Origin: an uncultured Methanosarcinales archaeon
Lineage (GTDB): Archaea; Nanobdellota; Nanobdellia; Woesearchaeales; JAGVZT01
Reading direction: 5' to 3'
Length of the DNA: 64,000 bases
Assembly (NCBI GenBank): GCA_964354685.1
Contig: CAYHAM010000005.1
Span: 9,942 to 73,941, forward strand
The position numbers were made by a program, and so were the translations under genes. Below the pieces are notes generated by a model. It was not told the origin of the DNA and searched no databases. It saw only the letters and a list, made by a program, of their open reading frames with translations. Shown one piece after another: positions 5,362 through 55,615 of this stretch (positions are counted from its first letter, which is position 1; each line of letters begins with the position of its first letter).

Positions 5362-5407
5362 TTAGCGAGTTGCCAGTGTCTAACCACAATATTGGCAACT
5401 CGTGGTG
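5362..5407 (+). repeat. Hairpin element copy A (TTAGCGAGTTGCC-N19-GGCAACTCGTGGTG)
   Basis: 9-10 bp inverted repeat with a ~19-nt loop containing AACCACAA. Immediately follows the AT-rich TTTTAATTTTAAAATTATAA. Confidence 0.75.
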
Positions 5408-5477
5408 ATTATTATTGGTTTTTAACTAATAAGAGATGAACAAGGTGGTTTATAAGAAACAAGGGTTAATTAACAGA

Positions 5478-5525
5478 AAAATTTATATATGTAATATATA
5501 ATTAGTTTGAATTAGTATAAAAACA
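5478..5525 (+). promoter_or_regulatory. Archaeal TATA-type promoter region shared by all three cassette copies
   Basis: TTTATATAT and GTATAAAA boxes 20-60 nt upstream of the ATG. The same sequence recurs at 6633..6680 and 9410..9457. Confidence 0.4.
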
Positions 5526-5543
5526 AAAAAAAAGGTTGATAAA

Positions 5544-6242
5544 ATGGCTGAAGAGATTTCTAATAGAACATTGGCAATTATGTTGATTGTTGTTATGGCA
5601 ATATCTTTGGGAGGTACTATAATTAGCTTGAATAGGCTAACTCAATTGGGCTTTCCTGGTATAACAGGTGCTGCAACTGGCACAGGGACATCAACAGTGA
5701 ATATAACATCACAGGCATCGATAATTTTTCATGCTGGCAATAACACGGTTGCTTTTGGTAATGGATGGGTGAATAGCACAGAGAGCAGTGGAATTTGTGT
5801 TATGAGTGCTGTAAATAATAGTATTGGTACAATAAGTGCAGCTTGTAAAGGTAATTGGGCTGCTGGTAAGAGTGGGTTTATAATAGAAAACAATGGAAAC
5901 GTGAATCTTAGTGTTGAGGTTCATTCAGACAAAAACGCAACTGAGTTCTTAGGTGGTCAAACCTCTGGAACTAATAACATGAATTTCACTTTTAGGGCTT
6001 ACAACAATGAAACAGCATCATGCGCTTATATAAACGATAGTTGTAATAGTACTGTGTGGCTTGCTTGGCCAAGCGATGATGCAAAAACAGGGATTTGTAA
6101 TACCACTGGGGGTTTGGGTTATGATGACACTAAAGACTCAATGGTTATTGACCTTAACTTAAGCATAGACTACAGAACCAATAAAACTGGTAATGGTACT
6201 CAAACAGCAACAATAACAGCTACTGGTACTGCCCTTATTTAA
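5544..6242 (+). CDS. Secreted/surface paralog family protein (232 aa) with N-terminal signal-anchor
   Basis: About 85-90% identical to 6960..7661 and 9737..10441. Charged N-terminus, ~20-aa hydrophobic segment, many sequons. Ends TATITATGTAL. Confidence 0.55.
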   Translation: MAEEISNRTLAIMLIVVMAISLGGTIISLNRLTQLGFPGITGAATGTGTSTVNITSQASIIFHAGNNTVAFGNGWVNSTESSGICVMSAVNNSIGTISAACKGNWAAGKSGFIIENNGNVNLSVEVHSDKNATEFLGGQTSGTNNMNFTFRAYNNETASCAYINDSCNSTVWLAWPSDDAKTGICNTTGGLGYDDTKDSMVIDLNLSIDYRTNKTGNGTQTATITATGTALI

Positions 6243-6411
6243 CTAGATTTTTTTATATCTTTTTTTGTTTTTGGAAAAGAGAAAATGAGATTATTTTTTT
6301 CAATGTTATACTTACAAAAACTTATGCGGCTTGTTGTTCTTTTTATGAAACTTTAATAAAATTTAAACTTAGGTTGCTGATAGTCATTATTTTTTAATAT
6401 TATTATGATAA

Positions 6412-6461
6412 CTAGGGTCGCCTGATAAGTGCTCAAACATGTTATGTCAGGCTCCTGGTGC
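6412..6461 (+). repeat. Hairpin element, divergent copy with compensatory stem changes (GGTCGCCTGA..TCAGGCTCCTGGTG)
   Basis: Same architecture, different stem sequence, still perfectly paired. Followed by the conserved tail GTTTCTCTCTATACTCAAGGAGACAAGAAAC. Confidence 0.55.
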
Positions 6462-6700
6462 TTTTGTTTCTCTCTATACTCAAGGAGACAAGAAACCTTA
6501 GACCTTTACCCGCGGGTTAATTGAACGTGGTGTATAATTTGCACTGAATTATTTTAATAGTCTATATAACAGTCATTTGTAACCATTAAGGAATAAACAA
6601 CTGTTTTTTGTAAAGAATAATGGTTAATTAACAGAAAAATTTATATATGTAGTATATAATTGGTTTAAATTAGTATAAAAACAAAAAAAAGGTTGATAAT

Positions 6701-6955
6701 ATGGCTCAAGAGGATATTCCAAAAAGGGTGATTTTTGTTCTTTTGATTTTGACAATTGTTATTTCTGTTTTAGGAACTTGGACTGTTCTGGATGCTGTAA
6801 GCAGTGCCCAGCCAAGGGCTTTGCCAAGCACAGCACAGGGTAATGTTAATATTAACATTTTACCACCAAATTCTGGTCAACAAGAACCTGCAATACAAAA
6901 AGCTGAAGCTCAAGGTGTTGTGGGTTTAACAATTCTTGAACAAAAAGGAGGATGA
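6701..6955 (+). CDS. Small membrane-anchored/secreted protein (84 aa), present in two identical copies
   Basis: MAQEDIPKR, then a hydrophobic helix, then a Q/P-rich tail. Identical to 9478..9732. Confidence 0.45.
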   Translation: MAQEDIPKRVIFVLLILTIVISVLGTWTVLDAVSSAQPRALPSTAQGNVNINILPPNSGQQEPAIQKAEAQGVVGLTILEQKGG

Positions 6956-6959
6956 TAGA

Positions 6960-7661
6960 ATGGCTGAAGAGATCTCAAATAGAACATTAGCTATTTTGTT
7001 GATTGTTGCAATTGCAATATCTTTGGGAGGCACGATAATTAGCTTGAATAGACTGACACAAATGGGTTTTCCTGGTATAACAGGTGCTGCACAAACTGAT
7101 ACAGGGACAGCAACTGTTAACATAACATCACAGGCATCGATAATCTTTCATGCTGGCAATAACACGGTTGCTTTTGGTAGTGGATGGGTGAATAGCACAG
7201 AGAGTAGTGGAATTTGTGTTATGAGTGCTATAAATTCTAGTGATGGTACAGTAAATTCGGCTTGTAAAGGTAGTTGGGCTGCTGGTTTGAGCGGATTTAT
7301 AATAGAAAACAATGGAAACGTGAATCTTACTGTTGAGGTTCATTCAGATAAAAACTCAACTGAGTTCTTAGGTGGTCAAACTTCTGGAACTAATAACATG
7401 GCTTTCACTTTTATGGCTTACAATAATGAATCAGCATCATGTACTAGTTTGAACATTACTTGTGATAATGAGTGGTTTGCTTGGCCAGATAATGATGCAA
7501 AAACAGGTATTTGTAATTCCACTACTGGTGGCTTGGGTTATGATGACACTAAAGACTCAATGGTTATTGACCTTAACTTAAGTATAGACTACAGAACCAA
7601 TAAAACTGGTAACGGCACTCAAACAGCAACAATAACTGCTACTGGTACTGCCCTTACTTAA
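6960..7661 (+). CDS. Secreted/surface paralog family protein; start probably the internal ATG (track ORF 6936 uses an alternative start)
   Basis: Alignment with 5544 places the start at MAEEISNRT. Confidence 0.55.
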   Translation: MAEEISNRTLAILLIVAIAISLGGTIISLNRLTQMGFPGITGAAQTDTGTATVNITSQASIIFHAGNNTVAFGSGWVNSTESSGICVMSAINSSDGTVNSACKGSWAAGLSGFIIENNGNVNLTVEVHSDKNSTEFLGGQTSGTNNMAFTFMAYNNESASCTSLNITCDNEWFAWPDNDAKTGICNSTTGGLGYDDTKDSMVIDLNLSIDYRTNKTGNGTQTATITATGTALT

Positions 7662-7703
7662 CTAGATTTTTTTATATCTTTTTTGTTATTTGGAAAAGAG
7701 AAA

Positions 7704-8855
7704 ATGAGATTATTTAAGAGTTTAGGGTTCTTTGTTGTTTTGGGAGTATTTTTTATTTTTGTTAGCCCATTTGCCTTGGGAGTGAGTATACAGCCTGCTA
7801 AGTATAGCATCAACTTTGAGCCCAATCTTGAAAAAGATTTTGGTTTTTACATTTGTGGTGCTGCTAAAATCGAGACTTATCTTGATGGAGATTTAGTAAA
7901 ATATGCAACAATCATAGATAATGAACCAAATAGCAGTTGTAGGGATATTGTTGTAAGAGTAAGATTGCCTAATAAAATAGAAAAGCCTGGTAAAAACATA
8001 TTGTTGGTTGGTGCCAAGGAATTGATAGAGGTTGGTAGTGGGGTGGCTGGCCGTGCTGCTATACAAGCACCAATTGTTATATTTGTTCCCTATCCTGGGA
8101 TGTATGTTGAATGGAATTTTGTAGCACCAAATGTGAATGAGGGCGAAACTGTGCATTTTATTGTATCTGTCAGCAACCTTGGAACTAATAACATCCAAAG
8201 CGCAAGGGCTATAATAGATGTTTATGATGATAACTCAAAAATAAAAAGTCTTAATACAGATGAAAAATCAATACCATCAAAAGAAAGCGCAGAGTTTCCT
8301 CTGGATATGGAAACAACAGGAATGAAGGCTGGTTCTTACAGGGTTGTTACAACCTTGTATTATGATGGGAGATCTGATTTAAAGGAGAAGTCTTTTAACA
8401 TAGGAAGCTTGTATGTGGCAATAAACAATTACACCAAGGTTCTAGAGCAAGGCAAGATCAATAAAGTTGGTATTGAGATTGAGAGTAAATGGAATAACAA
8501 TTTACAGGATGTTTATAGTGCGGTAACTATAAATGGTGTTAAGGTTAAAACACCAAACTATGACCTAAAGGCATGGGAGACAAAAGAGATAGCTGCTTAT
8601 TACGACACAACTGGAATGGACATCGGAGAGTATGATGCACAAATAACCTTGTATTATGGGGGAAAAACAACAACTGAAGAGGGAAAGGTTTATGTTGTTG
8701 AGCAGAGTGAAGTGCAAAGCTCTGAGGCAAAAGAGGAAAAACCATGGAATATAAGTTTTAATATAACACCAACTACCCTCTTAGTAGCTATAATTATTAT
8801 ATTGGTTGTTGTTGACATTGTGTGGTTGATTATAAGAAGGAAAAATAAAAGGTAG
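7704..8855 (+). CDS. Surface protein with signal peptide and C-terminal TM anchor (paralog of 4117..5316); start likely ATG at 7704 rather than TTG at 7683
   Basis: MRLFKSLGFF signal. C-terminal TM plus RRKNKR tail. Confidence 0.5.
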   Translation: MRLFKSLGFFVVLGVFFIFVSPFALGVSIQPAKYSINFEPNLEKDFGFYICGAAKIETYLDGDLVKYATIIDNEPNSSCRDIVVRVRLPNKIEKPGKNILLVGAKELIEVGSGVAGRAAIQAPIVIFVPYPGMYVEWNFVAPNVNEGETVHFIVSVSNLGTNNIQSARAIIDVYDDNSKIKSLNTDEKSIPSKESAEFPLDMETTGMKAGSYRVVTTLYYDGRSDLKEKSFNIGSLYVAINNYTKVLEQGKINKVGIEIESKWNNNLQDVYSAVTINGVKVKTPNYDLKAWETKEIAAYYDTTGMDIGEYDAQITLYYGGKTTTEEGKVYVVEQSEVQSSEAKEEKPWNISFNITPTTLLVAIIIILVVVDIVWLIIRRKNKR

Positions 8856-8864
8856 TATGTTATA

Positions 8865-9281: not shown

Positions 9282-9477
9282 TCTTATTATATTATTAATT
9301 CACTGATTTATATTAATAAAATTAATACTATCATTTTTATTGAGGGATATTAGTTGTAACTATTTAGGAATAAACAACAATGTTTTGTAAGAAACAAGGG
9401 TTAATTAACAGAAAAATTTATATATGTAGTATATAATTGGTTTAAATTAGTATAAAAACAAAAAAAAGGTTGATAAT

Positions 9478-9732
9478 ATGGCTCAAGAGGATATTCCAAA
9501 AAGGGTGATTTTTGTTCTTTTGATTTTGACAATTGTTATTTCTGTTTTAGGAACTTGGACTGTTCTGGATGCTGTAAGCAGTGCCCAGCCAAGGGCTTTG
9601 CCAAGCACAGCACAGGGTAATGTTAATATTAACATTTTACCACCAAATTCTGGTCAACAAGAACCTGCAATACAAAAAGCTGAAGCTCAAGGTGTTGTGG
9701 GTTTAACAATTCTTGAACAAAAAGGAGGATGA
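9478..9732 (+). CDS. Small membrane-anchored protein (84 aa), identical copy of 6701..6955
   Basis: 100% identity. Confidence 0.45.
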   Translation: MAQEDIPKRVIFVLLILTIVISVLGTWTVLDAVSSAQPRALPSTAQGNVNINILPPNSGQQEPAIQKAEAQGVVGLTILEQKGG

Positions 9733-9736
9733 TAGA

Positions 9737-10441
9737 ATGGCTGAAGAGATCTCAAATAGAACATTGGCTATTTTGTTGATTGTTGCGATTGCAATATCTT
9801 TGGGAGGCACGATAATTAGCTTGAACAGACTGGCACAGGTGCGTGTTCCTACTATAACAGCTGCTGCATTAACAGACACAGGGACAGCAACTGTAAATAT
9901 AACATCTCAGGCATCGATAATTTTTCATGCTGGCAATAACTCGATTGCTTTTGGTAGTGGATGGGTGAATAGCACAGAAAGCAGTGGAATTTGTGTTATG
10001 AGTGCTATAAATTCTAGTGATGGTACAGTAAATTCAGCTTGTAAAGGTAGTTGGGCTGCTGGTTTAAGTGGGTTTATAATAGAAAACAATGGAAACGTGA
10101 ATCTTACTGTTGAGGTTCATTCAGACAAAAACTCAACTGAGTTTTTGGGAAATCAAACTTCTGGAACTAATAACATGAATTTCACTTTTATGGCTTACAA
10201 CAATGAAACAGCATCATGCGGTCAATTGAACGCTAGTTGTGATGATGAGTGGCTTGCTTGGCCAAATGGGGATGCAAAAACAGGAATATGCTTTAATACA
10301 TCTAATGGTGGCTTGGGTTTTGATGACACTAAAGACTCAATGGTTATTGACATTAACTTGAGTATAGACTATAGAACCGTTCTCACTGGTAATGGTACTC
10401 AAACAGCAACAATAACTGCTACTGGTACTGCCCTTACTTAA
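9737..10441 (+). CDS. Secreted/surface paralog family protein (third copy)
   Basis: Paralog of 5544 and 6960. Confidence 0.55.
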   Translation: MAEEISNRTLAILLIVAIAISLGGTIISLNRLAQVRVPTITAAALTDTGTATVNITSQASIIFHAGNNSIAFGSGWVNSTESSGICVMSAINSSDGTVNSACKGSWAAGLSGFIIENNGNVNLTVEVHSDKNSTEFLGNQTSGTNNMNFTFMAYNNETASCGQLNASCDDEWLAWPNGDAKTGICFNTSNGGLGFDDTKDSMVIDINLSIDYRTVLTGNGTQTATITATGTALT

Positions 10442-10601
10442 CTAGATTTTTTTATATCTTTTTTGTTTTTGGAAAAGAGAAAATGAGGTTATTTAAGGAT
10501 TTATTTCTATTATTAAAATTATGATTAGTAAGTTGCTATAAAACTAGCTAATATTATCTTCTATTAATATAATGATATTAATAACAAAATTTTTAATGAT
10601 A

Positions 10602-10647
10602 TTAGCGAGTTGCCAGTGTTTAACCACAAAATTGGCAACTCGTGGTG
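10602..10647 (+). repeat. Hairpin element copy B, preceded at 10525..10555 by a degenerate half-copy (TAAGTTGCTATAA)
   Basis: TTAGCGAGTTGCCAGTGTTTAACCACAAAATTGGCAACTCGTGGTG. Confidence 0.75.
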
Positions 10648-20909: not shown

Positions 20910-21806
20910 ATGAGAGTTAAGGAGTTGAGGCTTAATCTGAAGCCTTTGATCAAGAAGTTAGAAATTGGGCTAAAGAGGGGCCAAAGTGAAGAAACATTGA
21001 CATCTAGTTTTAAGAGTGTTTTCAAGGGCCGAGGGCTTGAGTTCGAGGGTTTTAGGGTTTATACAGCTGATGATGATGCAAAGGAGATTGATTGGAAGGC
21101 TTCTTTGAGGGCACAAGAGCTTTTGATCAGGGTTCTAACAGAAGAGCGAAATATTCATGTTTTTTTTCTTCTAGATGTGAGTGATAGTATGATATTTTCA
21201 TCCACTGATAAGTTAAAGTGTGAGTATGCAGCTGAGTTTATAGCAACCCTTGCCTATGGTGTTATTGAGGCTGGTGATAGTGTTGGGCTCTGCATATTTA
21301 ATGATAAGGTTGTTCAGCTAATTCAAGGAAATATTGGGATGAATCAGTTTTACAAGGTTACAAAGAATCTGAGTGATCCTAAGCACTATGGAGGTGGCTT
21401 TGATTTGAATTTTATTTTGAAGTATGCCACTAGTTTTTTGAAGAGGAACACAGTGGTTTTCATTGTGTCTGATTTCATTGGATTGAAGCCTGGTTGGAAG
21501 CAGCACTTGGAGATAATGTCAAAGAAGTTTGAGTTGGTTGGGATTATGATTAGGGATCCTCGGGATAATAAGTTGCCAAAGGATGCTGGGCAGTTTGTGC
21601 TGGGTGATCCCTATTCAAACGCAGACATTCTTGTAGACGTGAAACTAATAAAGGATAAGTATGAGGAGTATGCAAACCAGCAGATTGCAGAGGTCAAGAA
21701 TGCTTTCCAGGACTTGGGTGCAGACTTTTTGTTGGTGAATACAGATGAGAGTTTTGTTTATCCAATTCTAGAGCTTTTTAATAGGAGGAAGCAGAGATGG
21801 AGATAA
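20910..21806 (+). CDS. DUF58-family protein (MoxR partner)
   Basis: Position immediately after MoxR. FKGRGLEFEGFRVY motif typical of DUF58. Confidence 0.6.
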   Translation: MRVKELRLNLKPLIKKLEIGLKRGQSEETLTSSFKSVFKGRGLEFEGFRVYTADDDAKEIDWKASLRAQELLIRVLTEERNIHVFFLLDVSDSMIFSSTDKLKCEYAAEFIATLAYGVIEAGDSVGLCIFNDKVVQLIQGNIGMNQFYKVTKNLSDPKHYGGGFDLNFILKYATSFLKRNTVVFIVSDFIGLKPGWKQHLEIMSKKFELVGIMIRDPRDNKLPKDAGQFVLGDPYSNADILVDVKLIKDKYEEYANQQIAEVKNAFQDLGADFLLVNTDESFVYPILELFNRRKQRWR

Positions 21807-22732
21807 CTTTTCTTAGGCCTTTGTATTTAACATTCTTGATTAGCGTACCTTTTTTTGTTGTGATGCACTTCTTGATATTGCAGCATGTGAAGAGGCGTGC
21901 ATTGAAGTTTGCCAACTTTGAGGTTATTGAGAGAGCAACTGGTGGACAAATATTGAATAAGAATGTTGTTATCTTGATCATTAGGTTGTGCGCTCTTGTT
22001 TTGTTCACTTTTTCAGCAGCTGGAACAATATTTTGGTATGAGGGGCAAACCACTAATTTTGATTATATTATAACACTTGATGCTTCGAGTAGTATGCTTG
22101 CAGACGATTTTAGTCCAAACCGTATTGAAGTAGCTAAGCAAGCTGCTATTGAATTTGTTGAGATGTTGCCTCTCCAAACCAATATTGGTATTGTTAGTTT
22201 TGCTGGAACAAGTTTTGTTGAGCAACCTCTTACTGATGATCATGGTCTTGTTAAGGACAAAATAAATGAGATTGGTGTGAAGCCTGTTGGAGGTACTGAT
22301 TTGGGAGAGGCTTTGGTAACTGCATCTAATATGCTGTTGTCAGAAGAGGATAAAGCGCGATCAATAATTCTTTTGACAGATGGACAGAGCAATGTTGGAA
22401 CAGATCCTATTTTTGGTGCAGAGTATGCGAATGAGAATCAGATAACTGTTTTTACAATAGGTATAGCGACCTTAGAAGGAGGAAAGTTTTCTAAGGTTGA
22501 GGCTATTTCAAGGCTTGATGAGGACACATTAAAACTGATTGCTCAGAACACTGGTGGAGTGTATTATAGGGCAGAGAACAGGGAAGAGCTGCAGCAGGCA
22601 TATGTGAATATTGCTGCCTCAACAAAGCAGAAGATTTCTGTTAATTTGCAATTGCCATTGTTGTTGATTGCTTTGTTCCTCTTGTTTGTTGAATGGGGTT
22701 TGATTAATACGAAGTATAGGACATTACCTTAG
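21797..22732 (+). CDS. von Willebrand factor A domain membrane protein (BatA-like)
   Basis: N-terminal TM helices. VWA MIDAS motif DASSSM and GGTDLGEAL. Confidence 0.7.
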   Translation: MEITFLRPLYLTFLISVPFFVVMHFLILQHVKRRALKFANFEVIERATGGQILNKNVVILIIRLCALVLFTFSAAGTIFWYEGQTTNFDYIITLDASSSMLADDFSPNRIEVAKQAAIEFVEMLPLQTNIGIVSFAGTSFVEQPLTDDHGLVKDKINEIGVKPVGGTDLGEALVTASNMLLSEEDKARSIILLTDGQSNVGTDPIFGAEYANENQITVFTIGIATLEGGKFSKVEAISRLDEDTLKLIAQNTGGVYYRAENREELQQAYVNIAASTKQKISVNLQLPLLLIALFLLFVEWGLINTKYRTLP

Positions 22733-22797: not shown

Positions 22798-22843
22798 TTA
22801 GCGAGTTGCCAGTGCTTAATCACAATAAAGGCAACTCGTGGTT
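22798..22843 (+). repeat. Hairpin element copy C (plus orientation)
   Basis: TTAGCGAGTTGCCAGTGCTTAATCACAATAAAGGCAACTCGTGG. Confidence 0.7.
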
Positions 22844-22880: not shown

Positions 22881-22933
22881 ATCACCACGGGGTTGCATAT
22901 AACTTGGTTGTGAACAAGCAACCCCGCGAGTTA
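22881..22933 (-). repeat. Hairpin element copy C', inverted, with compensatory stem changes (CGGGGTTGC/GCAACCCCG)
   Basis: Reverse complement reads CTCGCGGGGTTGC-N21-GCAACCCCGTGGTGATT. Convergent with copy C. Confidence 0.65.
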
Positions 22934-22996: not shown

Positions 22997-24142
22997 TCAG
23001 CTATCTCTAAAGTAATTTATCTGATTAACAGCATATATGAACAATCCAGAGCTCCATGCAAAGGGGTGTTCTGATTTGTATCTGGATCTTTTAACTGGTT
23101 TTCCATTTTGTTCGTATATTTCGTAGACACCATTGTGTCTTACTATGAGTTCTGCAATTTGGTTTAGTAGTTCTATAGCTTGTTTTCTCATTCCAATTTT
23201 GTTTTTTGCAACTGCATCTAAGCATCCAAGCCATAACCAGCTTAGACCATTGTGATAGTCTCCTATCCCTCCTATGTAATTGATTAGGCTAATTTTGGTA
23301 AAGGGGTATTTAGGATAATTTGTTTTAGAGGGTATGTGTTGATTTATCCTAAATTCTTGAATAGCCTTTTGGATTTTTAATTGTTGATTTTTGTTTGCAA
23401 TATCAAATAGTATGGCTAAAATGTTTCCATCTGTTGAAAAATAATCATATCCTTTCTTGTCTATCCAGTCTATGTAATAGTCCTGTTTCCAGAACAAATC
23501 ATTTATTTTTTGTTTAACATCTCTATGTAAATCTAAATAATGTTTGGAATCCTCTTTTTTTCCAATGGTTTTACACATGTCTGAAAATTCTCTTAGTGCT
23601 TCACAATGTAAAATATTTGTGTAGAGTACTTTTCCACTTTTTTTGATTGAGTCTGTCCATGCTGCGTAATGCTCTTCTTCTATTAAAAGGTCGTTATCTG
23701 TATCACGGGTTAGGTTCCATTGCATAGCCTTTTTCAGATTTGGGAAATATTTTTTTAGGAATTCTTTGTCTTTGGTTGTTTTGAGGTAGTTGTAGAATAA
23801 GATTACAAACAAAGAGTTTTGGTCAGTTGAGGTGTGGAAGAATTTGTCTTCGGTATACCTTGCTCTCATCTTCTGCACAGGTCTTATTCCGAATAATTTT
23901 AAAGCAATAAAGTAGTCACCTATTCGAAGAGGTATTTGTCCTTGTTTGTTTTGGTATTTGATGAATAATTTTAGGTTTTTTTTAACTATGTCAAAGTCTT
24001 TTAGATAAAGGGCGCCAAGGCCTGCAAAAAAACCATCTCTGGCCCAGTAATCATCAAAGTGATGGGACCCAGCTAGGATACCATCTTTAGAATAGCAACT
24101 CCTAAGGTTGTTCTTGGCAATAGCATATGCTTTTTCTATCAT
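22997..24142 (-). CDS. Six-hairpin (alpha/alpha)6 glycoside hydrolase, GDE_C/GH63-like (putative amylo-1,6-glucosidase/glucoamylase-type)
   Basis: Motifs typical of GDE_C-like barrels: GSHHFDDYWARDG, HNGLSWLWL, AWTDS. Confidence 0.45.
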   Translation of the reverse strand: MIEKAYAIAKNNLRSCYSKDGILAGSHHFDDYWARDGFFAGLGALYLKDFDIVKKNLKLFIKYQNKQGQIPLRIGDYFIALKLFGIRPVQKMRARYTEDKFFHTSTDQNSLFVILFYNYLKTTKDKEFLKKYFPNLKKAMQWNLTRDTDNDLLIEEEHYAAWTDSIKKSGKVLYTNILHCEALREFSDMCKTIGKKEDSKHYLDLHRDVKQKINDLFWKQDYYIDWIDKKGYDYFSTDGNILAILFDIANKNQQLKIQKAIQEFRINQHIPSKTNYPKYPFTKISLINYIGGIGDYHNGLSWLWLGCLDAVAKNKIGMRKQAIELLNQIAELIVRHNGVYEIYEQNGKPVKRSRYKSEHPFAWSSGLFIYAVNQINYFRDS

Positions 24143-25373: not shown

Positions 25374-25451
25374 TTATATCCTCAAATGCCAAAAATGCTT
25401 TGCATTTTTGAGCATGCCAAAAACGGCTTTGCCGTTTTTTAGCATAATAAA

Positions 25452-25641
25452 CGAGCCTGGGGGGACTCTCGTGCTAATTAGCATTTCGAACCCCCGACCT
25501 ACAGCTTACTATGCTTCAGCTAGTTCTCTTCATACTCATTAGAGTACTACTCCGAGACTCTTCATAAGCTTAGGAGGCTTACAAAAGGTAAAATTAAGTA
25601 TTTTAACCTTTGTTGCCCTATCCAGACTAGGCTACAGGCTC
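25452..25641 (-). tRNA. tRNA-like gene with large insertions (about 190 nt); anticodon undetermined
   Basis: Perfect acceptor pair GAGCCTG/CAGGCTC. D-arm GCCT-AGTCTGGATA-GGGC. T-stem GGGGG/CCCCC with TTCGAAA loop, but about 100 nt of extra sequence. Confidence 0.45.
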
Positions 25642-26963: not shown

Positions 26964-27076
26964 AAAATGAAAAAGCCTCCGGAGGGAGTTGAACCCTCGA
27001 CCTGCGGATCACTTGCATAAGGGCTACAAGTTTCGGCTTTAGAAATCCGCCGCAATAGCCACTATGCTACGGAGGC
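26964..27076 (-). tRNA. tRNA-Arg (anticodon TCT) with a canonical-position intron (~30 nt)
   Basis: Reverse complement has GCCTCCG/CGGAGGC acceptor, GCGGA-TTTCTA-(intron)-A-TCCGC, and T-arm GAGGG-TTCAACT-CCCTC. Confidence 0.7.
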
Positions 27077-27094
27077 TTAGGGTAATGGATTAAA

Positions 27095-27115
27095 GCCTTG
27101 TTTATATAATTTTCT
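27095..27115 (-). promoter_or_regulatory. TATA box for tRNA-Arg (TTTATATAA about 25-35 nt upstream on the minus strand), preceded by GGATTAAAG
   Basis: The same GGATTAAA-N-TTTTATATA arrangement precedes tRNA-Asn at 30432..30450. Confidence 0.45.
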
Positions 27116-27148
27116 ATATGGTTTTTTAATTTTATTATAATAATCTAC

Positions 27149-27195
27149 TTTAGCGATTTGCTAGTGTTTAACCACAATAAGGGCAAATCGTGGTG
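27149..27195 (+). repeat. Hairpin element copy D (stem variant GATTTGCT/GGCAAATC) plus conserved tail 27196..27230
   Basis: TTAGCGATTTGCTAGTGTTTAACCACAATAAGGGCAAATCGTGGTG, then TGTTTCTCTATACCCAAGGTAGAAAGAAAC. Confidence 0.7.
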
Positions 27196-27323
27196 CTACT
27201 GTTTCTCTATACCCAAGGTAGAAAGAAACGACTGATAATTACACGCTTGATACTAGCATGCGGTAAATCACTCGTGAATTTAATAAAAAATTAAAATGAA
27301 GTCAACAATGATATTAAATATCT

Positions 27324-29555: not shown

Positions 29556-30107
29556 TTACAGCATACTCAACACCCTCTCAGCAAAGTGTGTGAAGAGGAA
29601 TAGGTTTATAAGCATGTTTAATGTGAAAGAAATAATACTATTTATTGGATTAAAGCCTAAAGCTAATATGTAAGTGGTATGAATAACTAAGTTAAAGACA
29701 AGTGTTAATATTATGCCTGCTATTGATACATTCAAACCCAAAAGAAGAAAAGAGAGCAAACAGATTATGAAGTAGGCAGCTATTTGAATAAACATTGGGA
29801 TGCATAGGCGTCCATTGAGAATTGAGCCAATAATTAACATGGTTGTTGCTGCAAGCATTGCAAACAATGGAGAAAAGGCAAAGCAAAATATTATTGTTAT
29901 GAATGTTATGAGCTCAAATCCCAATGATAGTTGAATGAACCTTTTCCAAAATATTGAGATTATTCCAATTGAGATTAGTAACAATGTTAGGATTATTGCT
30001 TTAAATCTTTGGAAGAGTATTAAAATAATGAGAATTGATACAAGTAGAATAACATACTTCTTGATGTAATTTTTAGCATCCTGTGATAATACGTATTTGT
30101 TTATCAT
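29556..30107 (-). CDS. Hydrophobic membrane protein (183 aa)
   Basis: About 6 TM helices. Confidence 0.35.
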   Translation of the reverse strand: MINKYVLSQDAKNYIKKYVILLVSILIILILFQRFKAIILTLLLISIGIISIFWKRFIQLSLGFELITFITIIFCFAFSPLFAMLAATTMLIIGSILNGRLCIPMFIQIAAYFIICLLSFLLLGLNVSIAGIILTLVFNLVIHTTYILALGFNPINSIISFTLNMLINLFLFTHFAERVLSML

Positions 30108-30329: not shown

Positions 30330-30413
30330 CGCCCCGGGCCAGGTTTGAACTGGCGACCTTGCGGTTTCTAGGCAAGCTAACAGCCGCACGCTCCACCACT
30401 AAGCTACCGGGGC
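30330..30413 (-). tRNA. tRNA-Asn (anticodon GTT) with a 12-nt intron at 37/38
   Basis: GCCCCGG/CCGGGGC acceptor. TGCGG-CTGTTA(intron)A-CCGCA. T-arm GCCAG-TTCAAAC-CTGGC. Confidence 0.65.
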
Positions 30414-30431
30414 TTAGGGATATGGATTAAA

Positions 30432-30539: not shown

Positions 30540-30585
30540 TTAGCGAGTTGCCAGTGCTCAACCACAAAAAAGGCAACTCGTGGTG
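30540..30585 (+). repeat. Hairpin element copy E, preceded by half-copy at 30489..30508 (AACGAGGTTGCTATTA)
   Basis: TTAGCGAGTTGCCAGTGCTCAACCACAAAAAAGGCAACTCGTGGTG. Confidence 0.75.
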
Positions 30586-30696
30586 ATGGTGTTTGTAGAT
30601 ACCCTATGTATAAAGAGACTATAAAGAGACTATAAAGAAACAAAAGAATTTAACGATAGTTTTATATATAAAATAGGTATTTAGATTCTTGAAAAA

Positions 30697-39056: not shown

Positions 39057-39662
39057 TTGAATATGGTTGAAATAAAAGCGTTTAATAAATGGAGTACAGA
39101 TGGAATAGAGGTTAAAGACCTTGGTTTAAGGGGTTATATAACCTTAGAGCCAAAGATAGTTCCAAAAACAGGCGCTAGATATGCTAAACAGAGGTTTTAC
39201 AAGTCTAAAGTATTTATTGTTGAGCGTTTGATTAATAAGCTAATGGTACCTGGGCATAAGGGTAAAAAGCATTTTAAGACTTCTTATAAGAATACTGGCA
39301 AGGGGCATACTGCCTATGACCTTGTTGAGGAAGCTTTGAAGATAGTTGAGGCTCGTACTAAGAAGAATCCAATAGAGGTTTTGGTTAGGGCTATAGAAAA
39401 CGGGGCTCCAAGAGAGGAGATTATCACTATAGAATATGGTGGGGCTCGTTATCCAAAGGCAGTTGAGTGTGGACCTCAGAGAAGGGTTGATTTGGCTCTT
39501 AAGAATATGGTACAGGGTGCATATCAAAAAAGCTTTGGAAAAAAAATGCAGTCTGCTGATGCTTTGGCAGCAGAGATTGTTGATGCATATGAGAGCCAGG
39601 TTTCTTCAATGGCTATTTCTAAGAAGCATGAGCTTGAAAGGCAGGCAGATGCTTCTAGGTAG
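39057..39662 (+). CDS. rps7: Ribosomal protein uS7 (S7p/S5e)
   Basis: Archaeal S7 signature ARYAKQRFYKSKVFIVERLINKLM. About 200 aa. Confidence 0.8.
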   Translation: MNMVEIKAFNKWSTDGIEVKDLGLRGYITLEPKIVPKTGARYAKQRFYKSKVFIVERLINKLMVPGHKGKKHFKTSYKNTGKGHTAYDLVEEALKIVEARTKKNPIEVLVRAIENGAPREEIITIEYGGARYPKAVECGPQRRVDLALKNMVQGAYQKSFGKKMQSADALAAEIVDAYESQVSSMAISKKHELERQADASR

Positions 39663-39709
39663 GGCTTGGTTCTATTTATTTTTAGTATTTATTATGGTCC
39701 AATTTAAAA

Positions 39710-39755
39710 CTAGCGAGTTGCATGTGTACAATTACATGTTCTGCAACTCGTGGTG
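39710..39755 (+). repeat. Hairpin element copy F (stem variant GAGTTGCA/TGCAACTC)
   Basis: CTAGCGAGTTGCATGTGTACAATTACATGTTCTGCAACTCGTGGTG. Confidence 0.65.
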
Positions 39756-39772
39756 CTATATCTTGTATTTGC

Positions 39773-40687
39773 TTAAGTGATAAAGTTTATTCCTAATTTT
39801 TCAGCAAGTTCTATAACTTTCTCAAACTCCTCATGCTTTAATCTTCTGTTTATGTCTTCGTGTTCTTTTGCCCTGTATTCTGGTCTGTACTGGTCCATTA
39901 TGTTTACAACTGCCTTGTCTTTGAAGTTTTCTGAGATAAATTCCAGGATTGGTTTTGTGCAGCATTCAAAATGGTTTGGCAATACTAAATGGCGTATTAC
40001 TAGTTCTGAATCTTTGAATGCCAATAAGTGGTTTCTTTTTACAGTTTCTAGATAGTTTGGAGCCTTGCTTAGTCTTTCAGCGCATTTGTTGCTCCAATAC
40101 TTCCAGTCGCTTAGGTAAACATCAACTATGTCTTTTAGCAGTTCCATTGATTTTTCTGACATGTAGAAGTTTGAGTTCCACACAACTGGCATGTTGGAAT
40201 GAACGTGCTTTAAGGTTTGTAGAATGAATGGCAAATTGGGTGTTGGCTCTCCTCCCACAAGGTTTATGTTTTTGCAATGAGAGTTTTTGTCAATTATTTC
40301 TGCTAAATCTTTTGGCAAAAACATTATCCCTGTCTCTAGTCTTTGGCTAATGGTCCAGTTTTGGCAGAATTGGCAGCTGAATGTGCATGACCAGAAGAAT
40401 ATTGTAAAGCTGGGAACAAAGAAGTATTCTTCTCCTAAATGAGTAAAGTATGAATTGACAATTGCTTTATCACCCACTTGGCAAAAGCCTTTTTCTCCTT
40501 TTGTTCTGATGGCATGACATTTTCTTTCACAGAGTTCGCAGTTTTCTATGATTTTTAGTGCTTTTTTTATTTTTGGGTCTAATAATCTATAGTTTGTTTT
40601 GAATTTTGGTTTTGCTTTGTCATTTAGAATATCATAGTAATTCTTTAATGCCGATCTTACTTTTAGGTCTTGTTCTGTGGTGACCAT
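39773..40687 (-). CDS. Radical SAM enzyme, PflA/AmrS-like activase family
   Basis: CTFSCQFCQNW (C-x3-C-x2-C) and GGEPT glycine-rich motif. Confidence 0.55.
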   Translation of the reverse strand: MVTTEQDLKVRSALKNYYDILNDKAKPKFKTNYRLLDPKIKKALKIIENCELCERKCHAIRTKGEKGFCQVGDKAIVNSYFTHLGEEYFFVPSFTIFFWSCTFSCQFCQNWTISQRLETGIMFLPKDLAEIIDKNSHCKNINLVGGEPTPNLPFILQTLKHVHSNMPVVWNSNFYMSEKSMELLKDIVDVYLSDWKYWSNKCAERLSKAPNYLETVKRNHLLAFKDSELVIRHLVLPNHFECCTKPILEFISENFKDKAVVNIMDQYRPEYRAKEHEDINRRLKHEEFEKVIELAEKLGINFIT

Positions 40688-40725
40688 AAGAGAAACTAAG
40701 AATTAGAGATTTATAAAGGTTGTTT

Positions 40726-41460
40726 TTAATCTTCCTGTTTAAGCTTTCTTTTTTCCTTTACTGCAAACTTATGCGCTAATCTTACTGGCTCTGGGAGTTT
40801 GTTGCCTTCTTTAAGACAATACTTGGTTATTTCTAAACTTTTTTTTAGACTTACCTTGTGGCCAGGGCTCACGTATAATGGCTTTGCATGGTGTTTTGTT
40901 TCTAACAAAAATGCTCTTTGCTCGTTATCAATAAAAACCTTGCCTTGTTTTACTTCTCCACATAGCAATTTTTTTGCCACTCCAATTGTTGGTATATCTA
41001 GCAATAATCCAACATGTGATGCACAACCAATTCTTCTTTGGTGCAAGATACCATTTGCATCGCACATTAGTATGTCTGGTTTGTTTTCTAAAAGATTAAA
41101 TGCCTCAACAATTGGTGGTGATTCGCGATAGCTTAAGAATGTTGGAATATAAGGGATTTGGGGTTTGGTTATGATATGTTTTTCTTCTATTAGTTCAAAT
41201 GTTTTGTAGTCAAGAACAACCACAACTGCAACCATCTCATTTTCAGTATAAGCTAGGTCACAGCCCCCAATAGTTCTAATCTCAGAGAAATCATCCTTTA
41301 CAATTACCTTTTTTGCTAGTTTGAGCTGTTCCTCTTTTAGCTTCTTGATATCCATGTTCTCCACCCTTTTGGTATATAAAAAAGGTAGAAGTTTGGATAT
41401 AAATATCTTTTGTTTTGTTACTATCTTGTTGGGACTAATGATAAAATAAAAGAACTTCAC
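40726..41460 (-). CDS. nfi: Endonuclease V (deoxyinosine 3'-endonuclease); true start probably the internal Met (MDIKKLKEE, near 41355)
   Basis: GGCDLAY and YIPTFLSYRE motifs characteristic of Nfi. Confidence 0.7.
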   Translation of the reverse strand: MKFFYFIISPNKIVTKQKIFISKLLPFLYTKRVENMDIKKLKEEQLKLAKKVIVKDDFSEIRTIGGCDLAYTENEMVAVVVVLDYKTFELIEEKHIITKPQIPYIPTFLSYRESPPIVEAFNLLENKPDILMCDANGILHQRRIGCASHVGLLLDIPTIGVAKKLLCGEVKQGKVFIDNEQRAFLLETKHHAKPLYVSPGHKVSLKKSLEITKYCLKEGNKLPEPVRLAHKFAVKEKRKLKQED

Positions 41461-41858
41461 TACTTAGGTGGTTGCATATAGCCCTGATTATACAGATGGT
41501 TGTAAACTAATGCTCTCAAATGCATATTATCCCATGCTTGTGGATTTTGGTCATCCAATTCTCGGTCCTCCAATTTATGTACAACCAATGACTTCACAGT
41601 TTCAGAAAGAACATCGTCCTTGTCTAGTTGACCTGAATAAACCCTAAGAAGAGCTACATTAACCAGTCTAGATACGACTTGATATTGTCTACCTCCTATA
41701 TTAAGAGTACCATACTCTTTAATTGCTGTAACATTAGGTTCTGTAAAAATCTCATCAGCTGGGTTCGCTAAAATCTCACATAAAGATTTAACATCTCCTC
41801 CTGACAATTCTCCTAGTAGTTGAGAAAAAAATCCAACATAAGCTCGTTTATCTATCAT
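41460..41858 (-). CDS. Hypothetical protein (132 aa)
   Basis: ORF only. Confidence 0.3.
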   Translation of the reverse strand: MIDKRAYVGFFSQLLGELSGGDVKSLCEILANPADEIFTEPNVTAIKEYGTLNIGGRQYQVVSRLVNVALLRVYSGQLDKDDVLSETVKSLVVHKLEDRELDDQNPQAWDNMHLRALVYNHLYNQGYMQPPK

Positions 41859-52369: not shown

Positions 52370-52990
52370 TTAGTTTTTGTTCAGCTTTTCTAGGATTGGA
52401 ATAATTTCCATTGGGTTGTTGATATTAAAGTTTCCTTTAACATCTTTGTTTTTGTAGATTATTGAGGGCATTCCAGCGTTTTTTGCTGCCAAAGCATCTG
52501 TTTGTGCATCACCAATGTAGATTGCTTCTTCTGGTTTGACACCAAACCTTTTTGAAGCTAACAATAATGACTCTGGATGTGGTTTGTGGTGTTTGACATC
52601 AAAGATTGTAACTGCATGTTCAAAATAATGATCTATTCCAAGGTGCTTGAGTACATTAATAGATACACGGCTTGTAACAATACCTAAATGATAATTTTTT
52701 GAAATTTGCTTTAATAGTTTTTCAACATATGGCTCAAGTTTAACATACTTGTAGAACTTCTTGTAATTTTGCGCACCGTAGTTTTCTATTGATCTAACTT
52801 TTGATGGAGGAAGATCTGGTCTTATTCTTAACGTCTGTTCTTTTATTGAGAGATGGTGTAGTTTTTTGTATTCATCAAGGGTTATACTTGTATTAAAAAA
52901 TTTACCAAAGATGTGTTTATAAAATTCAAAGTTTGCTTTTACTGAGTCAATTAACACCCCATCTATATCAAACAGAACAACTTTTATCAT
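52370..52990 (-). CDS. HAD-superfamily hydrolase (beta-phosphoglucomutase/phosphatase-like)
   Basis: Motif I VLFDIDGVL. Motif IV GDAQTD. Confidence 0.6.
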   Translation of the reverse strand: MIKVVLFDIDGVLIDSVKANFEFYKHIFGKFFNTSITLDEYKKLHHLSIKEQTLRIRPDLPPSKVRSIENYGAQNYKKFYKYVKLEPYVEKLLKQISKNYHLGIVTSRVSINVLKHLGIDHYFEHAVTIFDVKHHKPHPESLLLASKRFGVKPEEAIYIGDAQTDALAAKNAGMPSIIYKNKDVKGNFNINNPMEIIPILEKLNKN

Positions 52991-52992
52991 TT

Positions 52993-55428
52993 TTATTTAA
53001 AGAATTTATCGAGCTTTTTCTGATCAAGGCTTGCTAGCAAGTCTTCTTTTGAGTAGCCAAGAACCTCAAAGATCTTTTCCACTGATGGTATGATTTGGTT
53101 GTTGATGTAGTAATCAGCATCATACTCTCCTTCTCCACATTCTTCTGGGAGTCTTGCTTTGTCACGAATTTTGTCTCCTGTTGAACATATAACATATCTT
53201 ATCATTGTGCCTGGTCCAACATCATAGCCTTGTTGCTTGAGCCTTTTTGCAACTGCAACATGAGGGCCAACTGATTCATACTCTTTTATTGTTTTTTTGA
53301 GCTGGGTGTAAATAATAACCTCTTGGATTGGAATCTTTTTCTTCTTGATCTTGTCAATAACTTCTCTGACATGGTTGAATGCTTTTTGTGTGTTGTTATC
53401 TTTTAAAATTATATTAAGGATTTCCTCTTGTGTGTTCTTTGCAACTTCAGAGATGTTTCTACGCACTGTTTCAAAACCTATTATTTTAATTTTTCCGTCT
53501 TCATTTAGCAGAGCATACTTTTTCTTTGCACCATAGGTGCCAATCTTTGCTGACACAAATATGCCTCTTGGGTAAAGGCCCTCAAACTCAAGCTCCATGA
53601 GCTCTGGTAATTTGAGGTTGAACCCGTCAACAAACTTGATTGCATCTTTCCTTGTTTTTCCGTCAAGGGTTAAGAAGACAGAGTCTGTGTCACCATATAA
53701 TATTTGGAAGCCCTCTTTTTCTGCTTTTTCTATTAGTTGTTTTATGTAGTACCTTCCATATGCTGTTATGCTCTGTGCACACTCAAGACAGTACCATCTT
53801 GCCATAAAGAATCCAAGGTAGCCGTACATTGCGTTTGCTATTGTTTTTAGTGCATATTGTCTTGCAAAGAGTATTTTTGAGTCTTTAGTTTTTGTTATCT
53901 CTTTTATTCTCATTCTTCTTGTTATTAACTCTTCAATAACTGTTGAGATAAATCCCTTCTTTTTTTTGCAGAACCAGTTGTGCTCATCTGGTGGAACATC
54001 CTTTCCTTCACAACACTTGCAGTTCAATGTTTCAGGACTGATATTATGTGTAGTTATTATGCTTGGGTACAAGCTCCTGAAGTCAAGCACAACTATGTCT
54101 TTGTATAAGCCTGGCTTTGGTTTGTACACAAATGCTCCTTTGTATGTTACAGATTTCCTTGCTGTTATCTCTTCATGGGTTGGTTTGTTTGGTACAAGCT
54201 CATTTGAGTATTGACTTCTTTTGATTAAGTACCATTCAACTAGTTGAGAGTAGCCCATACGGCTTATATCATATATTGGTTGGCCAACAACCTTAACAAT
54301 CTCTACTATGTTTGGCAAGAGGTTTGTTGCGAGTTTGTGTGTTAGCTCTGCGTCTGTTAGGTTGTATTCGCAGAATTTGTCTAGATTCTCTGGTTTTTTG
54401 TCAAATACCTCATGTAGCTTGTCAATGTCAACATTCTCTTTTGTTTGGTCTAGTAGCTCTTTTGAAACAGAGTTAAGGTCATATGTTGGTGTTTCTAATG
54501 TCACTGCAAAAACACGTCTTATAAATTGGAAGATGTCTAGATACACTATTCCTGTTATTCTTGCATTTATGTCTCCTATTCTGTCAATTTCCAACTCTGA
54601 GTAGTCTAGGCCTAAGTCAAGTTTTATGTTGTTCTTGCTTGCCCTTTTTTCAATGTATGGTAAGTCAAAACCGTCTGAGAAGTATCCTGTTAATATGTCT
54701 GGTTTGTATTTTTCTATAGACTCTTTGAATTTTGTTATTAACTGAGCCTCGTTCTCTACTGGCTCAACATAATCTAGCTTTGTTTTGAATTTTTTTGAGA
54801 CAAATACCTTCTCGAAACCTTTGCCATAAAGCGCAATCATCACAATAGGGTTTTCTTCTGGAAGCATTTGTTTTCCCAGTGGGTTGTAGGTTTCAATATC
54901 AAGTGCGAGGATTTTTAGGTCATTAATTATTTCAGTTGATGTTTGGGTTATTGAGTCAGCGTTTATAACAGAGACTTTTGATTTTTGGTTTACAAATTCT
55001 CCTTCAACCTCTGTGAGGACCATTGGTGTAATGTTTTTGTCAATTAGGTAGCGTCTTGTGAATAAGATATCAGACTCATATGCTTGGAAGTGGTCTTTGA
55101 GGTGGTTTCTTATTGTTGGAATGTCTTGAGGGAATCTTGTGTATGCTTTAATTAGTTTGAGCTTTTTGCCATTATATCTTTTTTCAACAATCTCTGTTTT
55201 TGTTATTGTTACTTTTCTTTCTCTTTTTTCTATACTCAAAGTTTTAAGTGTTTTTGATGCTTCCTCTGCATCTTTTTGTTTTGAATAAACATATAGGTAT
55301 GGCTCAAAGTTTGAATCCTGTACACAAATCTGTTTGTCATCGGTTGTTCTCCCATATAGCTGAACAACTGTTTTTTCTCCTAATGTCTTGTATACTATGT
55401 CAATTGGATAGAAGCTTATTTTGGGCAT
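52993..55428 (-). CDS. polB: Family B DNA polymerase
   Basis: Exo I LALDIET. Motif A DFRSLYPSII. Motif C YGDTDS. Confidence 0.9.
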   Translation of the reverse strand: MPKISFYPIDIVYKTLGEKTVVQLYGRTTDDKQICVQDSNFEPYLYVYSKQKDAEEASKTLKTLSIEKRERKVTITKTEIVEKRYNGKKLKLIKAYTRFPQDIPTIRNHLKDHFQAYESDILFTRRYLIDKNITPMVLTEVEGEFVNQKSKVSVINADSITQTSTEIINDLKILALDIETYNPLGKQMLPEENPIVMIALYGKGFEKVFVSKKFKTKLDYVEPVENEAQLITKFKESIEKYKPDILTGYFSDGFDLPYIEKRASKNNIKLDLGLDYSELEIDRIGDINARITGIVYLDIFQFIRRVFAVTLETPTYDLNSVSKELLDQTKENVDIDKLHEVFDKKPENLDKFCEYNLTDAELTHKLATNLLPNIVEIVKVVGQPIYDISRMGYSQLVEWYLIKRSQYSNELVPNKPTHEEITARKSVTYKGAFVYKPKPGLYKDIVVLDFRSLYPSIITTHNISPETLNCKCCEGKDVPPDEHNWFCKKKKGFISTVIEELITRRMRIKEITKTKDSKILFARQYALKTIANAMYGYLGFFMARWYCLECAQSITAYGRYYIKQLIEKAEKEGFQILYGDTDSVFLTLDGKTRKDAIKFVDGFNLKLPELMELEFEGLYPRGIFVSAKIGTYGAKKKYALLNEDGKIKIIGFETVRRNISEVAKNTQEEILNIILKDNNTQKAFNHVREVIDKIKKKKIPIQEVIIYTQLKKTIKEYESVGPHVAVAKRLKQQGYDVGPGTMIRYVICSTGDKIRDKARLPEECGEGEYDADYYINNQIIPSVEKIFEVLGYSKEDLLASLDQKKLDKFFK

Positions 55429-55569
55429 TGTAGTGTCAATATAAAGTTTAAAAGTTTATAAACCTTGCTGTGTGTGGATATATGAAAATGTTACTTTTAT
55501 TATTATAATAATTAGCGATGTTGCTATTAAAATACTCATTTTTATTACAAAATTATTACAAAAATTATA

Positions 55570-55615
55570 ATTAACGAGTTGCCAGTGTTCAATCGCATAA
55601 AAGGCAACTCGTGGT
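55570..55615 (+). repeat. Hairpin element copy G, preceded by half-copy at 55512..55530 (TTAGCGATGTTGCTATT)
   Basis: TTAACGAGTTGCCAGTGTTCAATCGCATAAAAGGCAACTCGTGGTG. Confidence 0.7.

Follow-up and report, generated by a model that had tools for sequence, protein, structure and literature searches.

What is the repeated hairpin that punctuates this stretch of archaeal DNA: a gene for a small RNA, a control element for the genes beside it, or a repeat that spreads as DNA? The 64-kb stretch that was analysed (the window) carries nine copies, and the original prediction took the family to be a structured small RNA or a cis-regulatory RNA. We found a hairpin that is structured, subject to constraint and so far undescribed. 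It is unlikely to be a cis-regulatory RNA, and a role as a small RNA is unproven. The reading that we favour, and to which we give about an even chance, is that the hairpin (HP1) is the conserved 5′ core of a lineage-specific, non-coding, structured interspersed repeat that resembles repetitive extragenic palindromes (REPs) and REPINs or small miniature inverted-repeat transposable elements (MITEs). High copy number, intergenic location, a narrow range, graded truncation, nesting, independence of the neighbouring genes and an inverted heterodimer all argue for a REP- or MITE-like repeat rather than a conserved regulatory RNA.

The hairpin and its conservation

A covariance model (CM) of HP1 built from seven window copies and run over the 64 kb with filters off returned exactly the nine copies and nothing else, eight on the plus strand and one on the minus strand. 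The multicopy family is thus real, and its coordinates stood as first given, except that the last copy is better set at 55571-55616. Seven copies scored 64 to 77 bits, the minus-strand copy at 22881 scored 22.3 bits (E = 6e-5) and the copy at 6412 only 9.5 bits (E ~1.5); the membership of the last is nonetheless secure, because its 3′ part matches the family profile (nhmmer E = 3.7e-17). The 3′ half of the hairpin, GGCAACTCGTGGTG, occurs with up to three mismatches at nine sites in the window, seven of which are copies; shuffled sequences had a mean of 1.6 such sites, and none of 100 reached nine. All nine copies are intergenic, at a density of about one per 7 kb.

A specific pattern scan of metagenome contigs gave 13 further loci, all of them strong CM matches. 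Twelve came from one small data set, Ga0154702, which is Candidatus Woesearchaeota archaeon RBG_13_36_6 (GCA_001791825.1). One contig of this genome is 95% identical to window positions 39452-41507 over 2,057 nt, which makes RBG_13_36_6 a sister genome. At least 12 copies are therefore present in this incomplete genome and one in another metagenome, and there are at least 22 in the ~110 kb examined (~64 kb plus ~45 kb of two genomes).

HP1 consists of a 10-bp stem and a 19- to 21-nt loop containing a 3-bp mini-stem, with unpaired flanks YTAG on the 5′ side and TGGTG on the 3′ side. All nine window copies fold as the predicted hairpin, at −13 to −24 kcal/mol and with z scores of −2.0 to −5.2. 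The paired stem substitutions noticed between copies are real. Among 21 copies, pairing is kept in 97% of stem cells, and two-sided changes fall in three pairs only (five cells), so the independent compensatory events are few. Six of the ten stem pairs are invariant across the same 21 copies, a figure that is partly a matter of ascertainment, since the pattern that retrieved the 12 + 1 metagenome copies fixed most of the stem and so inflated its invariance. The strongest structural evidence is provided by two divergent window copies, 22881 and 6412, whose stems are largely or wholly different in sequence and still pair; the hairpin is kept through compensatory change. In the 6412 copy the stem is wholly different yet pairs, and a family-like loop (AGTGCTCAAACAT) and the TGGTG tag are retained; the loop GUGYUYAAYCAC is thus conserved even where the stem is entirely different. 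G.U pairs, including a conserved basal G.U, occur on the element's own strand.

One copy, 39710, has an orthologue in the sister genome (contig L139). Between the two, the ~33 nt made up of the stem, the TAG and GTGGTGCT are free of changes, whereas differences occur at 6 of the 21 loop positions and in ~12 to 20% of the flanks. A 25-nt block at −36 to −12 that contains TATTTATTAT is also unchanged.

The prediction had further proposed that CCAC in the loop pairs with the 3′ GTGG to form a pseudoknot. Such pairing would be available in 94% of cells, with no two-sided change, and it clashes with the base of the stem; moreover, the 3′ GTGG is invariant, and the loop changes are transitions that are equally compatible with a local GUG mini-stem. 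The pseudoknot is neither supported nor excluded by these data. An AT-rich outer helix around HP1 was considered and rejected, as flanks of the same copy gave 5.95 matches and flanks of different copies 5.80, which is no excess.

Anatomy, surroundings and distribution of the element

The unit first described, a 46-base hairpin, proved too small. The shared tail downstream of several copies is present and extends to ~90 nt, giving an element of ~140 nt, or ~175 nt with the upstream half-copy. In full units GGTG links HP1 to a second hairpin (HP2), after which come a third region (HP3) and a right end. HP2 has the base GUUUCU/AGAAAC and an upper stem that varies yet pairs (UACC/GGUA, UCCAUC/GGUGGA, UAGU/ACUA and others). 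The HP3 region runs from CAGATAATTACACGCTTGATA to GCATGYGGTGTA and is dissimilar to HP1; the right end ATCACTCGTGAAT follows, and then TATTTTAA. The distal part of the HP1 3′ arm recurs in this right end, which is consequently complementary to the left end TTAGCGAG and forms an inverted repeat of it: in all full copies six or seven of eight positions are complementary between the left end and the right CTCGTGAA or CTCGCTAA, and in copy L143 the match is a perfect 9 nt. At 45 to 60 nt upstream, about half of the copies carry part of the 5′ arm in duplicate, and the four such half-copies predicted for the window were all found. By reading, a half-copy is able to form a helix with the 3′ arm that contains a single bulge.

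Copies form a graded series from full units through 3′-truncated ones to HP1 alone. Decay is always from the 3′ side, and a profile search found no 3′ parts that lacked HP1. Nested within HP3 of one sister-genome copy, at L144 positions 1942-2025, is another small hairpin repeat, of the form A5-stem-T5/6; its 42 nt are found again, at 93% identity, within window positions 25385-25445. Two resemblances within the element were examined and dismissed. The CTTGATA (TTGAT) of HP3, a candidate nick site for an HUH enzyme, is a common 7-mer, with 18 occurrences in the window against 13.9 expected. The GTTTC...GAAAC of the tail, which might suggest a CRISPR repeat, is the base of HP2; no array is present, and the exact tail sequence is found a single time.

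Two of the nine window copies are full-length, three are truncated from the 3′ side (30540, 39710 and 55570, with only part of HP2) and four are HP1 alone. The full-length copy at 27149-27285 (+) comprises HP1 (27150-27195), HP2 (27201-27229) and HP3 with the right end (27231-27278); it scored 70.6 bits with the CM and E = 1.4e-22 with nhmmer for its 3′ part, is identical on Logan contig L001 and starts 73 nt from the 5′ end of the tRNA gene at 26974-27076 (−). The divergent full-length copy occupies 6412-6556 (+); HP1 takes up 6412-6461, and HP2, the 3′ domain and the right end TGAATTATTTTA come after it. Its half-copy (A′; 6368-6385, +), identified by sequence reading (CTTAGGTTGCTGATAGTC against CTAGGGTCGCCTGATAAGT), is like the divergent 5′ arm of that copy and unlike the family consensus.

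Among the truncated copies, that at 30540-30640 (+; 76.7 bits) has HP1 and a degenerate HP2-like tail without HP3, right end or any 3′-domain match; its half-copy TTAACGAGGTTGCTAT lies at 30497-30512 (+), and the 5′ end of the tRNA gene at 30330-30413 (−) is 127 nt away. The copy at 39710-39787 (+; 63.8 bits), the one with an orthologue in the sister genome, belongs to a subfamily with an A-U top pair and a different loop, has a degenerate tail, and lies 48 nt past the stop codon of the gene for ribosomal protein S7. The copy at 55570-55657 (+; 72.8 bits), with half-copy TTAGCGATGTTGCTAT at 55512-55527 (+), has HP1 and HP2, is truncated after CAGAT and lies between the divergent promoters of the PolB and Zn-ribbon/EamA genes.

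The four copies reduced to HP1 all lie past stop codons of co-oriented genes. That at 5362-5407 (+; 76.3 bits; minimum free energy −21.6 kcal/mol, z −5.2) is 46 nt past the stop of the plus-strand gene 4117-5316, with a T5 tract ~15 nt downstream, and that at 10602-10647 (+; 76.0 bits), with half-copy ATTAGTAAGTTGCTAT at 10524-10539 (+), is 160 nt past the stop of the plus-strand gene 9713-10441. The copy at 22798-22843 (+; 71.3 bits), whose 3′ tag is GGTT, lies 66 nt past the stop of the plus-strand gene 21797-22732. The variant at 22881-22933 (−), with stem GCGGGGTTGC/GCAACCCCGT and a minimum free energy of −24 kcal/mol (z −4.5), lies 64 nt past the stop of the minus-strand gene 22997-24142. 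The last two form a convergent heterodimer between convergent genes.

Overall, six of the nine window copies lie 46 to 170 nt past the stop codon of a co-oriented gene, five of these upstream of a T5 tract. The other three are in divergent promoter regions, and the two that had been noticed beside tRNA genes are indeed there, in divergent orientation at the distances given above. The neighbouring genes are functionally unrelated (surface proteins, S7, PolB, tRNAs, eIF2-gamma, PEP synthase). In the sister genome the orientation is mixed, and copies L145 and L137 are antisense to both neighbours, which argues against a cis-regulatory RNA; together with the unrelated neighbours, it leaves that part of the original prediction unsupported.

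Eight of the nine window copies lie on the uniformly G-rich strand. GC skew is above zero in 15 of the 16 4-kb bins of the window, independent of gene strand, with the plus strand as the G-rich one, and the window seems to lie inside a single replichore. Six of the eight sister-genome contigs with clear skew agree in placing the element on the G-rich strand; these contigs are few, and gene-strand composition confounds the short ones. By the usual skew convention, the G-rich strand is the lagging-strand template.

Each copy had also been said to follow a TATA-like stretch. The sequence upstream is indeed AT-rich, but it has no match to the window promoter consensus GAAAAATTTATATA at a usable distance. 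A recurrent ATTATAA motif at −19 to −4 is too near the stem for a start before it, and from sequence an independent promoter of the copies is not demonstrated.

The ~134 kb examined from relatives at 61 to 81% protein identity (PolB 76, 62 and 61%; eIF2-gamma 81 and 78%) gave no copy, and within this sampling the family is limited to a single species-level lineage. The spacer that follows eIF2-gamma is ~280 nt long in RBG_13_36_6 and holds a full unit, whereas in two relatives it measures 3 to 6 nt. From S7 to the next gene the relatives L126 and L127 have 4 to 35 nt, and the neighbouring gene differs from that of the window. In the spacer between PolB and the Zn-ribbon gene the window has ~185 nt (half-copy, AT-rich spacer, HP1 and HP2) that are absent from relative L122. 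Assemblies break at copies, and one Logan contig ends inside the 55570 copy. A scan of a genome collection with the 14-mer GGCAACTCGTGGTG, which is too short to discriminate, gave chance matches in bacteria only. Viral-contig scans gave matches expected by chance for the pattern length, in GC-rich phage contigs, and none with a loop-based pattern. Three related phages among these contigs (L130, L133 and L134 from IMG/VR; ~105 to 111 kb, 54 to 57% G+C) carry GCGAGTTGCCAGC...GCAACTCGTGGTA followed by a terminator hairpin, which we judged to be a chance resemblance forced by the pattern.

The window itself has a G+C content of 35.4% and archaeal genes, among them those for a family-B DNA polymerase (PolB), a split Hel308-type helicase, TruD and ribosomal protein S7, along with type IV pilus ATPase and platform genes, glycogen enzymes and many large immunoglobulin-like (Ig-like) surface proteins. 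For PolB and eIF2-gamma, the nearest named homologues belong to Candidatus Woesearchaeota/Nanoarchaeota and so to the DPANN archaea. The helicase is encoded by two adjacent minus-strand open reading frames (ORFs), 27991-29553 and 29556-30107. The best 120 homologues of its C-terminal part are all ~510 to 580 aa long, which indicates that the split is lineage-wide and not a frameshift, and stop-codon recoding was ruled out on the same ground.

Copies had been predicted to flank each surface-gene cassette. This holds in part, but no copy lies between 7661 and 9713. The cassettes are three paralogous units (5446-6296, 6604-7715 and 9381-10495) in a region of large Ig-like surface-protein genes; each consists of a promoter and a gene for ~240 aa without a Pfam match, and they share 83 to 97% DNA identity and the promoter GAAAAATTTATATATG.

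The tRNA genes of the window show some features of their own. For the gene at 30330-30413 (−), ARAGORN gave an odd four-base anticodon, ‘gtta’, and Rfam a normal tRNA (56.6 bits); a short intron mis-parsed by ARAGORN is the likely cause. The segments 27059-27119 and 30396-30456 show that two annotated tRNA genes are 80% identical through ~43 nt upstream of their 5′ ends, and this block includes TTATATAAA on the tRNA strand, a conserved tRNA promoter block. A tRNA-like gene at 25443-25632 (−) was missed by both ARAGORN and Rfam and has a 19-nt insert (ATGCTAATTAGCACGAGAG) in its T-loop; once the insert is taken out, ARAGORN calls a tRNA with a further 89-nt intron. It is probably a multi-intron tRNA gene, with an uncertain anticodon assignment. 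Just downstream of it, at 25385-25445, lie the two tandem A5-stem-T5/6 hairpins (GCCAAAAACGGCTTTGCCGTTTTTTAGC), which look like bidirectional terminators.

Competing explanations

If the element is a REP- or MITE-like repeat, copies would spread to new intergenic sites as DNA and then erode from the 3′ side, and the fold would be retained because the spreading step recognises the single-stranded hairpin and its flanking tags. The host might also use some copies, for example as 3′-end hairpins on neighbouring mRNAs. The bias to the G-rich strand, the dependence on a hairpin plus short motifs and the G.T pairs on the element's own strand suggest mobilisation as single-stranded DNA by an HUH-type enzyme. 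The most likely agent would be a structure-specific single-strand enzyme of HUH/Y1 type, similar to the TnpA of IS200/IS605, encoded in trans and not in the available data.

Several observations weigh against this reading. A Pfam scan of the 60 window ORFs found no transposase, integrase or reverse transcriptase, and among the ORFs beside 13 copies elsewhere, which were read without a Pfam scan, none was recognisable as any of the three and several were unidentified. Of the marks of a mobile element named in the original prediction, the right end does form an inverted repeat of the left end, but no target-site duplication was shown: none is consistently readable in the AT-rich flanks, where the exact ends of the element are not definable. 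Complementarity between the flanks of HP1 itself is no better than chance. REP-type elements and RAYT-class enzymes have been reported from bacteria only (PMC3733652, PMC6006769). The comparisons of occupied and empty sites involve relatives too distant (61 to 81% protein identity) for their spacers to be aligned, and at the only site that the window has in common with the 95%-identical genome, both carry a copy. Other points concern constraint. Conservation of the stem and tags between 39710 and its orthologue, with a diverged loop and flanks, is not expected of a dead mobile copy and points to host-level constraint or conversion between copies. The 6412 copy has kept every module despite full turnover of its stem, which needs long-term selection on structure, and its half-copy tracks the arm of its own copy, an ill fit to a purely selfish, decaying repeat. 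These unfitting points allow a host-level function (such as the mRNA 3′-end hairpins proposed for REPs), conversion between copies, or small RNA genes.

The last of these, a family of small non-coding RNA genes, is a possible explanation, though in our view an unlikely one. Each copy would have its own AT-rich promoter and a start near the G of GCGAG, producing a 45- to 140-nt RNA (HP1-GGUG-HP2-HP3), which would bind a protein or work in trans. Compensatory changes in both HP1 and HP2, G.U pairs (the conserved basal one included) on the element strand, and a loop conserved in the stem-divergent copy are what such genes would show, as is the 39710 orthologue, where the loop and flanks have diverged but the stem, the tags and the −36 to −12 block have not. 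Separate transcription units would suit an orientation that does not depend on the neighbouring genes, and T5 tracts follow all four HP1-only window copies at 5 to 35 nt. Full-length copies, however, have no consistent T5 terminator, and the AT-rich stretches lack the promoter consensus, with ATTATAA too near the stem. Truncation of most copies to different extents is unusual for functional genes, as are dozens of paralogues in a DPANN genome (typically ~1 Mb), and the family is found in one species-level lineage and in none of the sampled relatives.

A cis-acting RNA, whether a protecting or terminating hairpin in 3′ untranslated regions or else a 5′ leader or attenuator, with half-copy and 5′ arm competing for the 3′ arm, seems improbable. 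It would account for the six copies past co-oriented stop codons (five of them ahead of a T5 tract), for the two copies between convergent genes, each of which points with its own gene, and for the single-bulge pairing of half-copy and 3′ arm. It does not account for the three window copies and several sister copies that are not downstream of a co-oriented gene, least of all L145 and L137, or for neighbours without a common function and relatives that lack the element at the same genes. Furthermore, the gene that follows the 5362 copy is served by a promoter of its own, located after the element, and in several copies a T5-7 tract lies between the half-copy and HP1, so that the two may fail to be cotranscribed. 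Very improbable, too, is a classical MITE moved by a DDE transposase, with the left TTAGCGAG and right CTCGTGAA/CTCGCTAA as terminal inverted repeats and HP1 internal. The lineage-restricted distribution, the length of 140 to 175 nt without an ORF and the complementarity of the two ends in all full copies would suit it, but that complementarity is explained by the right end repeating the HP1 3′ arm, and most copies lack the right end yet keep HP1. Neither a target-site duplication in the AT-rich flanks nor, in the DNA examined, an insertion sequence with matching ends was identifiable, and the DDE mechanism predicts neither the strand bias nor the structural conservation.

Integron attC sites flanking gene cassettes deserve almost no credence. 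Integrons have reportedly been described in DPANN archaea by Ghaly et al. in 2022, and the copies do resemble attC sites: they are imperfect palindromes able to fold as single strands, most of them point the same way, and three lie among paralogous surface-protein genes. Pfam scans of the window nevertheless found no tyrosine recombinase; the copies are scattered among housekeeping genes on both strands without an array, the loop sequence is conserved, and the outer ends lack R″ (RYYYAAC) and R′ (GTTRRRY), the GTT of the 5′ arm and the AAC of the 3′ arm both being internal. By the features tested (core-site arrangement, integrase, array), the attC reading was refuted.

Two more novel readings seem to us rather unlikely. 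In one, the copies would encode a new class of ~45- to 140-nt structured RNAs, as genes or as domesticated insertions, and HP1, with its conserved loop and UAG/UGGUG flanks, would be a host-protein binding site kept by purifying selection after insertion. In the other, the family would be a REP-like system, the first in Archaea, whose tag is new and whose single-strand enzyme is not a RAYT.

Comparison with known elements

As the original prediction had suspected, the hairpin does not match a described RNA family. No Rfam family overlaps any copy in the window at E ≤ 5, only two tRNAs pass the gathering threshold, and a search of two full copies against Rfam 15 at E ≤ 10 gave nothing convincing. 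It is not a C/D-box or H/ACA RNA either: C and D boxes, K-turn GA pairs, a pseudouridylation pocket and an ACA box are absent on reading. With the structured small RNA families of Rfam and the C/D and H/ACA guides it shares multiple copies, a conserved scaffold, variable loops and compensatory stem changes, but it differs from them in not being conserved beyond one species-level lineage. Some more distant resemblances were set aside. Small ORFs starting at the GTG of GGTG are short and not conserved; a hammerhead would require CUGAUGA where the element has CAGAUAA; the retron msr-like 5′ UUAGCGAG with terminal inverted repeats comes without a reverse transcriptase and in a multicopy element; and origin recognition boxes do not fit copies spread over 50 kb.

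The RPE of Rickettsia, the Correia/NEMIS elements of Neisseria and the ERIC sequences of enterobacteria are small palindromic MITE-like repeats of reduced or compact genomes. Like them, the family consists of non-coding palindromic units of 100 to 170 nt that are dense in a small genome, lineage-specific and possibly cotranscribed with their neighbours. RPE differ by their in-frame insertions into genes and Correia elements by their TA duplication and 26-bp inverted repeats, none of which is seen here, and the conserved part of our element is one end (HP1), not both. PMC3733652 likewise mentions RPE.

The ends of IS200/IS605 elements and of their non-autonomous derivatives (PATEs), which a Y1 HUH transposase moves as single strands, likewise combine a hairpin with adjacent short single-stranded motifs and are biased to one replication strand, as the window copies may be (eight of nine on the G-rich strand). 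The family differs from these in lacking two similar subterminal hairpins, and its left junctions are AT-rich with no fixed tetra- or pentanucleotide. Neither tnpA nor tnpB was found in the available data on the window and the sister-genome copies. The classical IS200 type is the only TnpA_Y1 subclass known in Archaea (PMC6006769).

The closest likeness is to the REPs and REPINs mobilised by RAYT (TnpA_REP). Bacterial REPs have a stem of 5 to 13 bp, a loop of 2 to 20 nt and a GTAG or CGTC tag (PMC3733652). The family shares with them a short imperfect palindrome (here a 10-bp stem and a 19- to 21-nt loop), a conserved unpaired tag at one end, tens of copies, a strictly extragenic location often just past stop codons, stem subfamilies, an inverted heterodimer between convergent genes and a species-level distribution (PMC3733652). 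One such convergent heterodimer (22798/22881) was found among 22 copies. No RAYT gene was present among the 60 window ORFs or, by reading, among the ORFs at the 13 other copies (~64 kb + 45 kb). The tag is different, being TGGTG (3′) and YTAG (5′), or CACCA and CTAR on the other strand, rather than GTAG or CGTC, and the family also departs from REPs in its conserved loop, its 90-nt 3′ extension, the 5′ half-copy of many copies and its archaeal host.

DPANN genomes are streamlined, and about one structured non-coding repeat per 7 kb is a notable load for them. The element breaks metagenome assemblies of its lineage and is a sharp marker by which strains can be compared. Should the copies prove to be expressed RNAs under selection, they would rank among the first lineage-specific structured RNA families described in Woesearchaeota. 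If they are instead an archaeal counterpart of REPs with a different tag, this kind of element would extend to a new domain of life, and a new hairpin-recognising enzyme would be suggested.

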